The position numbers and the translations under genes were made by a program. Shown here one piece after another: positions 34,842 through 59,519 of a stretch of 64,000 nucleotides of DNA (the first letter of the stretch is position 1; each line of letters starts with the position of its first letter). Under the pieces are notes generated by a model. It was given only the letters and a program-made list of their open reading frames with translations, was not told the DNA's origin and made no database searches. Source of the DNA: an uncultured Candidatus Saccharibacteria bacterium (GTDB lineage: Bacteria > Patescibacteriota > Andersenbacteria > UBA10190); contig CAZSUC010000001.1 in the NCBI GenBank assembly GCA_964610055.1, positions 588,977 to 652,976 on the forward strand, read 5' to 3'.

Positions 34842-36135
34842 ATATCCACATCCTATCAATCAATTCTCGCGGTTGTCCGTACCGTAATCGATTTACCGCC
34901 TGCACCTCTACCTTCCCTATAGCCGTTTCTAAACTTAACGGCGGCAAACTCTGCCCCCGAAATGCTCGGTACGTAATTCCGGCCTGAGTCAGACGGATAA
35001 AAAAGTGATATGGCGGCAAGTCCTGAAAATCCTCCACTTGAATCGCCTGCCCCTTATCCCACGATGTTTGCTGAAAGGCCGGCAGTAACGCTTCCGCATC
35101 ATTTGCCCCTATTTGAAAAGCCACCAACGTTCCTACATTACCCAACACCGCCTCTCGCACCTCGTCAGTTAATTGCGCCACATACTGATTAGTTAAATGC
35201 ACAGCTAATCCGTACTTGCGCGCTTCCGACAACATAGAAATGAATGTTTCCGTCATCACATTCTGAAATTCATCGACGTATAAATAAAAGGGAACCCTGT
35301 CTTCGACCGGCATATCGGCACGACGCATTATCGCCGCCTGTAACTTTGCCATCAAAATCAATCCCAACATATATGAATTTAATTCTCCCAGTCTTCCTTT
35401 AGACAAATTCACAATCAAAATTTTGCCATGATTCACAATCTCATCAAACGCCAAAGCATTGCGCTTCTGACCGATGATATTGCGCATCGTCGTATTTGTC
35501 ATAAAGCGACCAAACTTGGAAGTAAAATAATTCAACATTTCCGAGCGATGAAACTGCGCGGTTTTTGCCATCTGCTCTTCCCAAAATGACAATACGACCC
35601 GATCTCGCACATGGCGACGTTTTTCTTGCTCAAATTTTTCATCCGTAAATAAGCGCGGAATCTCAATCAAAGTTCCGCCCGCCGGATCGGCCATAACTGT
35701 TAAAGCCGCATTTCGCATCCAGTGTTCAAACTGCGGCCCAATAATTCCCTGCTGATCCGGATCAAATAGTTTATAAAATATCTGAATCGCCTCGGCCACC
35801 AAAAAATCTTTCTCACTTTCAGTTTTACCATCCAATAAGTTCAAGCCTAATGGCCATTCCGTATCAGCCGGATCAAACAACACTACATCATCCAACCGCT
35901 CCGCCGGAATATTATTTAACAGCCAATCGCACACTTCTCCATGCGGATCAACAAAACAACACCCCGCCCCAGCCTGAATATCCTGCAAAATCATATTTTG
36001 ATACAAAGTCGATTTACCCGTCCCAGTTTTTCCAATGCAATACATATGTCGCATCCGATCTTGCGGTGCTGTTTGAATACTGCGCATTTGATTGCGAAAT
36101 TCAGCGTGTCCAATTACATTCATTCTTTCTGTCAT
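34840..36135 (-). CDS. Soluble FtsK/HerA-superfamily P-loop ATPase, TraD/VirD4 (type IV coupling protein)-like
   Basis: Walker A CIGKTGTGKST, then FVDPHGE, Walker B FYLYVDEFQ, and the C-terminal LSEARKYGLAVHLTNQYVAQL...LGNVGTLVAFQIGANDAE (TraG/TraD C-terminal-type pattern). No TM segment is visible. Confidence 0.8.
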   Translation of the reverse strand: MTERMNVIGHAEFRNQMRSIQTAPQDRMRHMYCIGKTGTGKSTLYQNMILQDIQAGAGCCFVDPHGEVCDWLLNNIPAERLDDVVLFDPADTEWPLGLNLLDGKTESEKDFLVAEAIQIFYKLFDPDQQGIIGPQFEHWMRNAALTVMADPAGGTLIEIPRLFTDEKFEQEKRRHVRDRVVLSFWEEQMAKTAQFHRSEMLNYFTSKFGRFMTNTTMRNIIGQKRNALAFDEIVNHGKILIVNLSKGRLGELNSYMLGLILMAKLQAAIMRRADMPVEDRVPFYLYVDEFQNVMTETFISMLSEARKYGLAVHLTNQYVAQLTDEVREAVLGNVGTLVAFQIGANDAEALLPAFQQTSWDKGQAIQVEDFQDLPPYHFFIRLTQAGITYRAFRGQSLPPLSLETAIGKVEVQAVNRLRYGQPRELIDRMWI

Positions 36136-55500: not shown

Positions 55501-57273
55501 TTACCTTTTTAAAACTGCTAAATACGCTTCCGGCGGAATATCCACTGAACCATGTTCGCTCATACGCTTCTTCCCTTTTTTCTGCTTTTCTAATAATTTG
55601 CGCTTACGTGAATAATCACCACCGTACAAATGTCCCGTGACATCTTTCCGCATTGCCGGCAAAGTTTCCCGCGCGACAATACTTCCTCCAATCGCTGCTT
55701 GCAAAGGTACTGCAAATAATTGCCGCGGTAATACTTCCTTTAATTTCGCTACCAGGCGCCTGCCTGTTGCCTCTGCCTTACTACGCGCCACAATTACCGC
55801 CAGTGCTTCTACCTCCACTTTATTCACTAACAAAGACAGCTTCACCACCTCGGCCGGTCGCCACTCTTTCATCTCATAGCTCATTGAGCCATACCCCGCT
55901 GTCACTGACTTTAATTTGTCATAAAAATCAACCACTAATTCACGCATCGGTATTAAATAGGTTAACTGCACCCGCTCCCCCTCTAAATGCTGTTGATTTA
56001 CAATTTCCGCTTCTCGATCCTGCATTACTTCAAAGACGGCTCCCATGTACCCAACTGGCGTTAAAATATCAACCTGAGCATACCGCTCTTCAATCGCTTC
56101 AATCTGAGATGGGTCCGGAAATTCTACCGGCGTCGCCGCTTCCATATCCTCACCGTTTCGCAACTTAATTCGATACGCCACACTCGGAGTCGTAATCACT
56201 AAATCTAAATTATATTCTCGACGTAAACGCTCTTGAATAATTTCCATATGCAGCATCCCTAAAAATCCACATCGAAACCCTTGTCCTAAAGCTTCGCTTC
56301 TCTCTTGTAATGCCGTTAGGCTCGCATCGTTTAACATCAATTCACTAATCGCATCTTTTAATAAGGGAAAATCATCACCCCGAGCAGGAAAAATTCCGGC
56401 AAACACTTTGGGCTGCGGAATTCTAAAACCCGGCAAAGCTTGTAAACCTGACCGCCGACTTGCCAAAGCAATCGTATCGCCCACCCGCGCTTGTCGCACG
56501 TCTTTTAACCCCGTTGCTATATATCCAATTTCTCCCGCATCAATCATTTGATCAGGATGCCATTCGGGTGCAAATGAACCAACTTCCACTGCCCGATCAG
56601 TCGCCCCTGTCCCTAGAAAAATCACTTCATCTCGTGCTGATACTTTACCTTCTATGACCCGCACGTAAGTTACAACTCCTTTATAATCATCGTACACAGA
56701 ATCAAAAATAAGGGCTCGCAAAGGCTTAGTATTGTCCTGCTGTGCCGCCGGTATTCGCTGCACCACTGCATCCAAAACTTCTTTGACTCCTTCTCCTGTC
56801 TTAGCTGAAATCTTGAGAATATCAGTCGCCTTGCCACCCAATAAAGCGAGTATCTCTTGAGTGACTCGCGGTACATCTGCTGCCGGTAAATCCACTTTAT
56901 TAATCACTGGAATAATCTCCAAATTATTCTCAATCGCAAAATACAAATTAGAAATAGTTTGCGCTTGCACACCCTGGGTTGCATCCACCAGTAATACGGC
57001 TCCCTCCACCGCCTGCAAACTCCGACTCACCTCATATTGAAAATCAACATGACCCGGCGTATCAATCAAATTCAGCATGACCCCATTCCACTGCATGCGC
57101 ACTGGCTGTAACTTAATTGTAATTCCCTTTTCCCTCTCTAATTCCATTGAATCTAATAGCTGTGCTCGCATCTTCCGACTCTCCACTGTTCCGGTCAGCT
57201 CTAACATCCGGTCGGCTAAAGTCGACTTCCCGTGATCCACATGCGCAATAATGCAAAAATTACGTATCTCCAT
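55501..57273 (-). CDS. lepA: Elongation factor 4 (LepA)
   Basis: MEIRNFCIIAHVDHGKSTLADRMLELTG... with DTPGHVDF and NKVDL. The start is set at ATG 57273. The ORF-track extension to 57387 runs through a terminator hairpin. Confidence 0.9.
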   Translation of the reverse strand: MEIRNFCIIAHVDHGKSTLADRMLELTGTVESRKMRAQLLDSMELEREKGITIKLQPVRMQWNGVMLNLIDTPGHVDFQYEVSRSLQAVEGAVLLVDATQGVQAQTISNLYFAIENNLEIIPVINKVDLPAADVPRVTQEILALLGGKATDILKISAKTGEGVKEVLDAVVQRIPAAQQDNTKPLRALIFDSVYDDYKGVVTYVRVIEGKVSARDEVIFLGTGATDRAVEVGSFAPEWHPDQMIDAGEIGYIATGLKDVRQARVGDTIALASRRSGLQALPGFRIPQPKVFAGIFPARGDDFPLLKDAISELMLNDASLTALQERSEALGQGFRCGFLGMLHMEIIQERLRREYNLDLVITTPSVAYRIKLRNGEDMEAATPVEFPDPSQIEAIEERYAQVDILTPVGYMGAVFEVMQDREAEIVNQQHLEGERVQLTYLIPMRELVVDFYDKLKSVTAGYGSMSYEMKEWRPAEVVKLSLLVNKVEVEALAVIVARSKAEATGRRLVAKLKEVLPRQLFAVPLQAAIGGSIVARETLPAMRKDVTGHLYGGDYSRKRKLLEKQKKGKKRMSEHGSVDIPPEAYLAVLKR

Positions 57274-57644: not shown

Positions 57645-57662
57645 CTAGCCCGGCGGAGTCAT
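57645..57662 (-). other. Mini-ORF MTPPG-stop with consensus SD
   Basis: AAAGGAGG, a 6-nt spacer, then ATG ACT CCG CCG GGC TAG on the minus strand. Confidence 0.3.
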
Positions 57663-57846
57663 GTACGACCTCCTTTCTAAAATGAGATCAGCCGACAGAC
57701 AACGCAAGGGGCCCTACCAACTTCAAAAAAAGAAAGAAAAAGAGAACAATATAACCGCCCGGAGGGGTTCATGAGAACCTACTTGGGGCACTAGCAGTCC
57801 CCTACAACACCCTCCAGACGGCTCGCACGACAGGTGCTGTTAAGTT

Positions 57847-57896: not shown

Positions 57897-59519
57897 TTAT
57901 TCCAACATTCCACCAAACCTTGGCGTCTCGGTCCCTGCATCTAATTTAACTTTCCATTTCCGCGGCAAATATTTTCGCAACACTTCTAACTCCTCACATC
58001 GGAATAACATACATAACCCTAAATAGGCCATTGCCCCGCCTACAAAGGCTCCAACCATCTGTACGCTCACACCCCAAAACCGCGTCATATTCACCCAAGG
58101 CTCAATTGCATACTTTAATCCTTGTACCACCATACCAGCCAATCCGCTCGCCACCGCGATCCTGATCATACTTGCCACCACCGCTTTATCATCAAACCCA
58201 TTCAGTTCTATATGCAGTTTTCCTAGCAATAACACCAAAGTTATAATCGCTGATGCCGAAAAAGCCAAGGCCAATCCTTCCACCCCCATACGCGGCGACA
58301 ACCAAATTGCCAATCCAATATTCGCCGCCATACTAATCAAAGAAATAACAACTGGTGTTGCTGTATTTTGTCTGACATAAAAAGCCCTAATCAACAACGG
58401 AGCGGCTGCTTGAGCAAATAAACTAACCAACAATAGACCTAAAATTGAATACGTCATAATAGTATCATTCCAATCAAACGCCCCATCACCAAACAAAACT
58501 CGCACAATTTGAGCGCGTAATAAATAAGCAAAAGCCGCGGTTGGTACTGTTAAAAAGATAATATAACGAAATGTTCGCGTTAGCGTCATCCGAAAATCTT
58601 TCGCCTGCTTCCGCGCCCATTGTTCGGCTAATGTTGGAAAAGCCGCTTGCGCAAATGCCAATCCAAAAATACCCACCGGTACGCTTTGAATGTTATTCGC
58701 CAAATGAAATGTCGCAATACTGCCAGCCGAAAGAGTCGAGCCAATAATGGTTACTAAAAACAAATTCATTTGTTGGCCTGCCATACCAAACATTCTCGGT
58801 ATAATCATCCGCCGTAAAGTTTTTACGTCTTTTGATTTCCATTTCATAACCGGACGCCACCGCCATCCCAACCGCCAAACACTCGGCAATTGAACTAAAG
58901 CATGCAAAGCTGCTCCTAACACCACCCCCCATCCTAACCCCGCCACTCCTAACCATGGCACCAGCCACACCACACCAACAATAATACCGATGTTGTAAAC
59001 AATCGGAGCCAACGCATACGCCACAAATCGCTTAAATGAATTCAGCACCCCTGAAAACATAAAGCTAATACTCAATAAAATTGGCTGTAATGCCATTATG
59101 CGAGATAAAGTGATCGTCATTTCTAACTTATCTCCCATAAAACCAGGTGTAATTAAAGGCACAATCCAACGCGCCCCTAATGCATATCCTGCGCTCAACA
59201 CTATCACTGTTAACAACACAATATTTAAGACCGACAAAGAGAAGTCAAAGGCCTCCTCATGATTACCTTTTTTACCTTTAACTAATTTCTCCGTAAACAA
59301 CGGAATGAAGGCTGCCGATAAAGCGCCCATCACTACTAAATTAAAAATCAAATCCGGCAAACGGAAAGCTGCAACAAACGCATCAAAAATATCGCCGGCC
59401 CCAAAAGTCGTAGTCATCACCCGTTCCCGTAACAACCCCACGACACGCGACCCTAACGACGCTACCGAGAGCCACAAAGCTGCTGAAATTAATTTTTGTG
59501 TATTGCCGTTCTTAATCAC
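57897..59519 (-). CDS. murJ: Lipid II flippase MurJ (MviN family)
   Basis: LGSRVVGLLRERVMTTTFGAGDIFDAFVAAFRLPDLIFNLVVMGALSAAFIPLF matches the MurJ N-terminus. 540 aa and polytopic. Confidence 0.9.
   Translation of the reverse strand: MIKNGNTQKLISAALWLSVASLGSRVVGLLRERVMTTTFGAGDIFDAFVAAFRLPDLIFNLVVMGALSAAFIPLFTEKLVKGKKGNHEEAFDFSLSVLNIVLLTVIVLSAGYALGARWIVPLITPGFMGDKLEMTITLSRIMALQPILLSISFMFSGVLNSFKRFVAYALAPIVYNIGIIVGVVWLVPWLGVAGLGWGVVLGAALHALVQLPSVWRLGWRWRPVMKWKSKDVKTLRRMIIPRMFGMAGQQMNLFLVTIIGSTLSAGSIATFHLANNIQSVPVGIFGLAFAQAAFPTLAEQWARKQAKDFRMTLTRTFRYIIFLTVPTAAFAYLLRAQIVRVLFGDGAFDWNDTIMTYSILGLLLVSLFAQAAAPLLIRAFYVRQNTATPVVISLISMAANIGLAIWLSPRMGVEGLALAFSASAIITLVLLLGKLHIELNGFDDKAVVASMIRIAVASGLAGMVVQGLKYAIEPWVNMTRFWGVSVQMVGAFVGGAMAYLGLCMLFRCEELEVLRKYLPRKWKVKLDAGTETPRFGGMLE

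Follow-up and report, generated by a model that had tools for sequence, protein, structure and literature searches.

Between murJ and lepA, on the minus strand of the window (the whole stretch of 64,000 nucleotides analysed here), a five-codon open reading frame (mini-ORF) reading Met-Thr-Pro-Pro-Gly-stop lies behind a consensus Shine-Dalgarno (SD) sequence. Comparison with related loci suggests that this mini-ORF is probably selectively maintained and translated. Taking the element as a whole, we tentatively read it as a Pro-Pro-stop minigene that is translated from a separate, structured small RNA. The spacer RNA carrying the mini-ORF matches no described family: Rfam 15 returned zero matches at the gathering score in the whole window and, at E ≤ 1, only a chance microRNA match in the spacer, and ARAGORN found neither a tRNA nor a tmRNA in the window.

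The best database relatives of the LepA encoded in the window are Candidatus Andersenbacteria (CPR/Patescibacteria). The window has a G+C content of 44% and a GC skew of about -0.3 throughout, which means that the coding (minus) strand is rich in G and poor in C, and nearly all genes of the window are situated on one strand. A DUF4012 protein is encoded upstream of murJ, while lepA is followed on its 3′ side by a 114-aa ORF and then by rmlC, rmlB and rmlD-like genes; the genes surrounding the mini-ORF are all encoded on the minus strand. The murJ-lepA spacer is 623 nt long, in a genome of approximately 0.7 Mb, and is made up of the following features, listed together with the two flanking genes:

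59519-57897, minus strand: murJ, PF03023-type, assigned via homology with the relative L083; stop codon at 57897
57875-57847, minus strand: P1, promoter-like, with TTGACA (57875-57870), 17 nt and TATAAG (57852-57847), read from the sequence just past the murJ stop
57823-57753, minus strand: hairpin H1, a long GC-rich stem in the minimum free energy (MFE) fold; RNA 5′ end or murJ end
57761-57727, minus strand: CU-rich tract, CGGGCGGUUAUAUUGUUCUCUUUUUCUUUCUUUUU / GGUUAUAUUGUUCUCUUUUUCUUUCUUUUU, SD-complementary, found by local alignment with L083
57713-57647, minus strand: hairpin H2, the 3′ arm of which consists of the SD, the start codon and the mini-ORF; MFE -26.3 kcal/mol
57676-57669, minus strand: SD-like AAAGGAGG; AGGAGG with equal 6-nt spacing also in the relative L081
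57668-57663, minus strand: SD-to-ATG spacer TCGTAC, 6 nt
57662-57645, minus strand: mini-ORF ATG ACT CCG CCG GGC TAG, Met-Thr-Pro-Pro-Gly-stop, read from the sequence
57635-57602, minus strand: hairpin H3, between the mini-ORF and T1, from the MFE fold; unalignable with relatives
57590-57520, minus strand: terminator T1, a 13+10-bp hairpin (57590-57527) and U7 (57526-57520); -35.3 kcal/mol, z = -7.4
57513-57486, minus strand: P2, promoter-like TTGACA-16-TATGAT, an 11/12 match in the promoter scan
57473-57418, minus strand: hairpin H4, 16 bp, z = -4.9
57385-57334, minus strand: terminator T2, hairpin 57385-57342 and U7 57340-57334, z = -3.5
57291-57286, minus strand: -10-like box TATGCT, 12 nt upstream of the lepA ATG, with identical box and spacing in L081
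57273-55501, minus strand: lepA, ATG at 57273

P1 was missed by the promoter scan because its final -10 base is G. At the positions equivalent to P1, TTGACT-16-TATAAT is found in L092 (11/12) and TTGACT-17-TATAAA in L083, and L092 also possesses an H1-like hairpin, which is followed by GGTTATATT. The stability of T1, H4 and T2 greatly exceeds that of shuffled sequences, whereas H2 is ordinary in this respect (z = -1.4 in the window and -0.4 for its L081 counterpart). Together, P2, H4 and T2 form a second small transcription unit (57513-57334, minus strand) between T1 and lepA. One of the islands conserved with L081 is formed by the 5′ arm of H4, and in the L081 stem, judged by eye, at least one base pair has changed in a compensatory manner (U-A to C-G). 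The first-pass annotation had placed the mini-ORF in the RNA leading into lepA. It seems rather to be carried on a short RNA of its own, which would run from P1, just past murJ, to the strong terminator T1 and would be separate from the lepA leader.

The five-codon ORF, its consensus SD and the 6-nt spacer between them were verified at their exact coordinates on the minus strand, with the ATG at 57662-57660, the ACT CCG CCG GGC codons at 57659-57648 and the TAG at 57647-57645. In its extended form, AGAAAGGAGGU, the SD would make 11 contiguous pairs (-17.4 kcal/mol) with the canonical 16S 3′ tail, which may not be that of the host; no rRNA gene is present within the window. The "very strong initiation context" that had been attributed to the mini-ORF therefore presupposes, as an assumption, a canonical anti-SD in the host ribosome. 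A Pro-Pro-X motif is present in the mini-ORF frame, which is putatively coding. Pro-Pro is rare in the proteins of this genome (14/12,597 codon pairs), the commonest Pro codon is CCG, and TAG accounts for 8 of the 33 stops. Single copies of the mini-ORF element and of the CU-rich tract were found in the window and the compared loci, and the idea that either is a multi-copy element was rejected. A 64-aa ORF (57643-57449, minus strand) starts 1 nt past the mini-ORF stop. Its expression via coupling or frameshifting was also rejected, as this frame extends across both T1 and P2 and lacks conservation in L081; for the latter reason, it is probably no gene.

The ordinary genes of the host do not use an SD. 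Among 39 genes and long ORFs, an SD core is situated upstream of 18% of first ATGs versus 13% of internal ATGs. The minus strand of the window contains 77 GGAGG motifs, and GGAGG followed by 4-9 nt and an ATG was observed 9 times, mostly at tiny ORFs, versus approximately 10 expected from base composition; inside the window alone, the SD-ATG motif is thus not above chance. One clear exception to the lack of SD use elsewhere in the genome is the gene starting at 36135. It is preceded by the sole other properly spaced consensus SD of the window (GAAAGGAG, 6 nt, ATG; 36150-36133, minus strand) and encodes a 431-aa TraG/TrwB/HerA-like ATPase (36135-34840, minus strand), possibly the product of a mobile-element or secretion gene whose translation signals are foreign. 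The low SD use in host genes is in line with a survey in which an anti-SD motif was detectable in only 48% of Parcubacteria, about half being reported without one (PMC9297842). In relatives, AAAGGAG followed by 6 nt and an ATG precedes a gene for an 86-aa Cys-rich protein (seen in L094), which indicates that SD-led initiation is probably functional in the clade.

Homologous loci were collected via LepA and MurJ. In the database comparison, the closest LepA relative is L081, with 87% identity, and every other relative shows 74% or less. The order murJ, long spacer, lepA was found in four lineages, namely the window, L081 (LepA 87%), L083 (74%) and L092 (72%). In seven relatives with LepA identities of about 71-72% (L088-L090 and L093-L096), lepA is preceded by 38-230 nt or by other genes, without a comparable RNA, and L097 has 118 nt upstream of lepA. 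The genes found before lepA in relatives without the RNA are G6PD or, on the opposite strand, the Cys-rich gene mentioned above. Further searches added little to this set: a genome scan with LepA gave only matches in other phyla, none of them above 55% identity, and was dominated by the generic motif EKQKKGKK, a metagenome scan with a MurJ alignment gave four loci and was likewise dominated by a generic motif, and protein searches for fragments with the MurJ C-terminus and the LepA N-terminus found no relative nearer than L081. The Cys-rich gene encodes 86-87 residues (YHCP...YGCGYGP...CPxC), is divergent from lepA and is conserved in relatives without the RNA; a Pfam match is absent from its record.

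L093 2055-2318, L094 2141-2401, L095 1016-1276 and L091 ~2053-2316 (uncalled), minus strand: 86-87-aa Cys-rich gene

The notion that the spacer is a decayed copy of this gene was rejected, since tblastn with the 86-aa protein gave zero matches in the window spacer.

The first-pass annotation had proposed to check whether the mini-ORF and its Pro codons are conserved in related leaders. Both are kept in the nearest relative, L081, and the picture becomes mixed farther out. Only short islands are shared between the spacers of the window and L081, and a global MAFFT alignment fails; because the spacers are too diverged for this approach, local alignment was used. For the window segment, the mini-ORF of L081 gives the best alignment, with 23/29 identical positions and one codon-sized gap (P ~0.012; better than 98.8% of shuffles). 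In L081, the element reads TAGGAGGG CAATC ATG CAT CCG CCG TAG (MHPP-stop), such that AGGAGG, the 6-nt spacing, the ATG, CCG CCG and TAGCT are common to both, and one whole codon is deleted in L081. As CCGCCG is without synonymous change between the two, selection at the nucleotide level and at the peptide level are indistinguishable in this comparison.

L092 (LepA 72%) carries CAGAAAAGGAGAG CTTGTT ATG ATG ACG AGC GGC GTT CCC CCC TAG (MMTSGVPP-stop), with AAGGAG as the SD 8 nt before the ATG; this ORF ends 14 nt before a 10-bp terminator preceding lepA. The Pro-Pro-TAG ORF of L092 is an independent instance in a second lineage. A further SD-led short ORF of L092 encodes MRVRQFSAHNYYLAI-stop. 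In L083, both SD-led short ORFs are without Pro-Pro, namely MRGKLEKRSYCATTS-stop and MPRDSPVFTR-stop (15 and 10 codons, respectively), so that Pro-Pro is present in L081 and L092 and absent from both ORFs of L083. The window mini-ORF is positionally equivalent to the 15-codon ORFs without Pro-Pro in L083 and L092. These first SD-led ORFs (L083 3647-3694 and L092 705-752) are both 15 codons long, share a Met-Arg start and are otherwise unrelated; they are located 214-239 nt from murJ, the same distance as the five-codon ORF of the window. In L092, a predicted long-range helix pairs the CCCCCC of the second ORF (969-983) with the SD of the first (GGGUGGAGG, 686-704). According to this folding model, translating one short ORF could unmask the other.

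An SD-led ORF of at most 10 codons ending in PP or PPG arises in 8-23 of 5000 dinucleotide shuffles per spacer (0.16-0.46%), and such an ORF is present in three of the four homologous spacers; the class "ends in PP or PPG" was fixed after data inspection. From the sequences compared, we conclude that the Pro-Pro-stop ending recurs above chance, in a tiny sample and with a class set post hoc. The element is carried by three or four metagenomic lineages only, two of which share ancestry. A relaxed pattern of the element gave three chance matches in the 1.68 Mb of compared sequence, zero of them upstream of lepA, and no such ORF was found upstream of lepA in 80 distant genomes. As for the initiation signal itself, GGAGG or AGGAG followed by 4-9 nt and an ATG occurs six times in the four spacers versus 0.32 expected (about 19-fold), and none of 3000 shuffles reaches six. 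On these counts, taken from the same tiny sample, we conclude that SD-plus-ATG modules are selected in the spacer RNA family.

The CU-rich tract is complementary to the SD. Of the islands that the window shares with L083, it is the best conserved (29/35 identical; L083 3572-3605), surpassing even the mini-ORF. The predicted duplex between this tract and the SD region amounts to -9.6 kcal/mol in the window and -15.2 kcal/mol in L083, where the tract is located at the RNA 5′ end. It might serve as an anti-SD, as a site for S1 or standby binding, or as the seed of an sRNA. Its conservation fits the foremost alternative to a translated minigene, an untranslated structural RNA in which AGGAGG and CCGCCG are helix arms whose partners would be the CU-rich tract and G-rich segments farther upstream, and the ATG and TAG are incidental. 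We regard this alternative as rather unlikely. In folds of the G-rich spacer RNA, C-rich runs are always paired; the bases of the SD and the mini-ORF have predicted pairing probabilities of 0.6-1.0, and in the window, L081 and L092 alike, base-pairing is predicted for the SD, the ATG and the Pro codons, including the pairing of the L092 CCCCCC with the SD of the other short ORF. However, the hairpin enclosing the mini-ORF is only as stable as its shuffled counterparts, unlike T1, H4 and T2, so that a selected RNA helix does not explain why the mini-ORF is conserved, and the predicted pairing partners in L081 are not those of the window.

The same alternative draws on the variable length and sequence of the ORFs (4, 5, 8, 10, 15 and 15 codons), on the SD-less genes of the host and on the anti-SD motif missing in many Parcubacteria (PMC9297842), while the SD of the Cys-rich gene of relatives, an ordinary gene for 86 aa, speaks against it. 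Furthermore, an ATG is situated 5-8 nt past every strong SD core in L083 and L092 and past the main one in the window and L081, which is hard to reconcile with incidental start codons given the six modules observed. The indel between the window and L081, which measures exactly one codon and keeps the stop codon, likewise speaks against a purely structural RNA.

The proposal of the first-pass annotation itself, namely that a Pro-Pro-Gly stall decides whether T1 forms, through competition of CCGCCG for CGGCGG, and thereby tunes read-through into lepA, appears improbable. The mini-ORF is indeed located upstream of lepA in the same orientation, and the identity of the hexamers is real: CCGCCG recurs at 57556-57551, and CGGCGG with U7 is found at 57532-57520. 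However, contrary to what had been claimed, CCGCCG is not the 5′ arm of T1. That arm is a 13-nt segment, GCCGUCGAAAAGC (hairpin 5′ arm CCGUCGAAAAGC), which pairs with GCUUUUCGGCGG(U) and is supplemented by an inner 10-bp stem; CCGCCG (57556-57551) is part of the apical loop. A short CCGCCG/CGGCGG stem was thus rejected as the terminator in favour of the 23-bp hairpin T1, with its stability of -35 kcal/mol.

A ribosome on the mini-ORF was modelled by forcing the segment from the SD through stop+10 or stop+13 to be single-stranded. Under this constraint, T1 kept a pairing probability of 0.99-1.0 in the window, and the terminator of L092 one of 0.91-1.0. In L081, only three basal pairs of the long hairpin were lost, and a local 7-bp terminator stem is also present. 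The postulated competition was therefore not borne out, T1 pairing being intact under the modelled ribosome and no antiterminator being seen. Stop codon and terminator are 54 nt apart in the window and 10 and 14 nt apart in the other two lineages, the terminator arms are unrelated in sequence, and that of L081 is GAGCGGC, without CGGCGG.

An intrinsic terminator does lie downstream of the ORF, as in attenuators (T1 here, with terminators also after the L081 and L092 ORFs), and the Pro-Pro-stop ORF of L092, 14 nt before the terminator that directly precedes lepA, speaks for the proposal, as do the precedents from work on mgtP and EF-P coupling. Mutually exclusive, ribosome-dependent structures were not found, and the mini-ORF does not occupy a promoter-free leader of lepA: P2, H4, T2 and the TATGCT box separate T1 from lepA. 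The presence of P2, T2 and the lepA-proximal box makes it unlikely that a leader peptide attenuates lepA here, and the suggestion that the peptide tunes lepA also conflicts with the absence of the RNA upstream of lepA in most relatives (the seven lineages L088-L090 and L093-L096) and of the ORF in the 80 distant genomes. Transcription that reads through both terminators might affect lepA, although this is unlikely.

A -10-like box 6-20 nt before the ATG, without an SD, is a family-wide property of lepA, with TATACT/TAYSCT in type-B relatives; it was seen in the window (57291-57271, minus strand) and in L081, L088, L089, L091, L093, L094, L096 and L097. Such a proximal box suggests that lepA is transcribed from a promoter of its own and that its mRNA is leaderless or has a very short leader. 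Whether the mini-ORF is translated or not, the present data lend no support to the feedback loop onto EF4.

Hardly credible is a neutral leftover, in which the SD and ATG would stem from a decayed gene and the likeness to L081 would be mere shared ancestry: a 623-nt spacer is long for a genome of ~0.7 Mb and relatives hold other genes at this position (G6PD or the 86-aa gene), but a 30-nt island has persisted in the window and L081 while change has saturated the rest of their spacers, the stop occupies the same position in the two, the 86-aa protein matches nothing in the window spacer, and SD-plus-ATG modules recur in L083 and L092.

If the mini-ORF is a translated minigene, its general form would be SD, 6 nt, AUG, X, Pro, Pro, (Gly), UAG. 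A ribosome initiating at the unusually strong SD would be slow to make or release X-Pro-Pro(-Gly), and its dwell time would be set by EF-P, Pro-tRNA or RF1. While dwelling, it would keep H2 open and expose the upstream CU-rich tract. By opening H2 in this way, the mini-ORF would act as a translation-capacity sensor that alters the fold, stability or availability of the RNA. In E. coli, Thr ahead of Pro-Pro is a weak pausing context (PMC8129111). A wider claim can be formulated, to which we assign a low probability. In this SD-poor CPR clade, tiny Pro-Pro-(Gly)-UAG ORFs with a strong SD, on an orphan RNA adjacent to lepA, would be dedicated sensors of translation capacity (EF-P, Pro-tRNA, RF1), and their arrest would remodel the RNA, for example by freeing the CU-rich tract or raising terminator read-through, and couple stress to EF4 or other targets.

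Translation of the mini-ORF with arrest of ribosomes, if it occurs, would make this the first regulatory arrest ORF reported from the Candidate Phyla Radiation. Such a case would further mean that organisms which have largely abandoned the SD retain a consensus SD for special regulatory purposes, and it would provide an entry point to a so far uncharacterised small RNA of very reduced genomes. If untranslated, the element would be a conserved purine/C-rich motif in an orphan RNA, of local interest only.

Short ORFs with Pro codons that sense Pro-tRNA or EF-P have been described in Salmonella, namely mgtP in the mgtCBR leader and mgtL in the mgtA leader (PMC3641672, PMC5299641, PMC6460261), and loss of EF-P changes termination downstream of polyproline (PMC5021804). 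With mgtP and mgtL, the element analysed here has in common a short SD-led ORF, consecutive Pro codons and a long structured RNA, as well as the possibility of two short ORFs per RNA (here in L083 and L092); ribosome speed at Pro codons as the signal is a further likeness, here as an idea only. In contrast, mgtP and mgtL overlap mutually exclusive stem-loops on the transcript of the regulated genes, whereas no alternative structure was found here, and the stretch from the ORF to lepA contains a promoter, a second terminator and a proximal -10 box. In addition, the ORFs described here have 4-8 codons and end immediately past Pro-Pro.

In classical leader-peptide attenuators such as trpL, hisL and pheL, too, a short ORF precedes an intrinsic terminator that carries a U-tract. 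Unlike these, the present element is without an antiterminator/anti-antiterminator set, its Pro codons are at the very end of the ORF, and in the window the terminator is 54 nt from the stop. Since it shares neither a transcript with lepA nor an alternative structure with these systems, the mini-ORF is possibly arrest- or sensor-like and not a member of the attenuator family.

Ribosomes arrest at Pro-Pro-X and Pro-Pro-stop, an arrest relieved by EF-P, and termination is slow after C-terminal prolines; Pro-Pro-Gly and Pro-Pro-stop are strong stall motifs. The mini-ORFs contain these same two sequence motifs and differ from known polyproline arrest in the weak Thr context and in a nascent chain of only 4-8 residues. 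The bar minigenes of phage lambda, which comprise an SD, 2-6 codons and a stop and were studied in pth mutants, offer another parallel with their very short ORF, strong SD and short transcript, although they are phage elements, unlike the window mini-ORF. Very short ORFs behind a strong SD are prone to peptidyl-tRNA drop-off. Finally, SD-poor Bacteroidota reserve a strong SD for a regulatory gene (rpsU/bS21 autoregulation). While that is a real protein gene and the product here would have 4-5 residues, in both cases a consensus SD stands out among SD-less genes.
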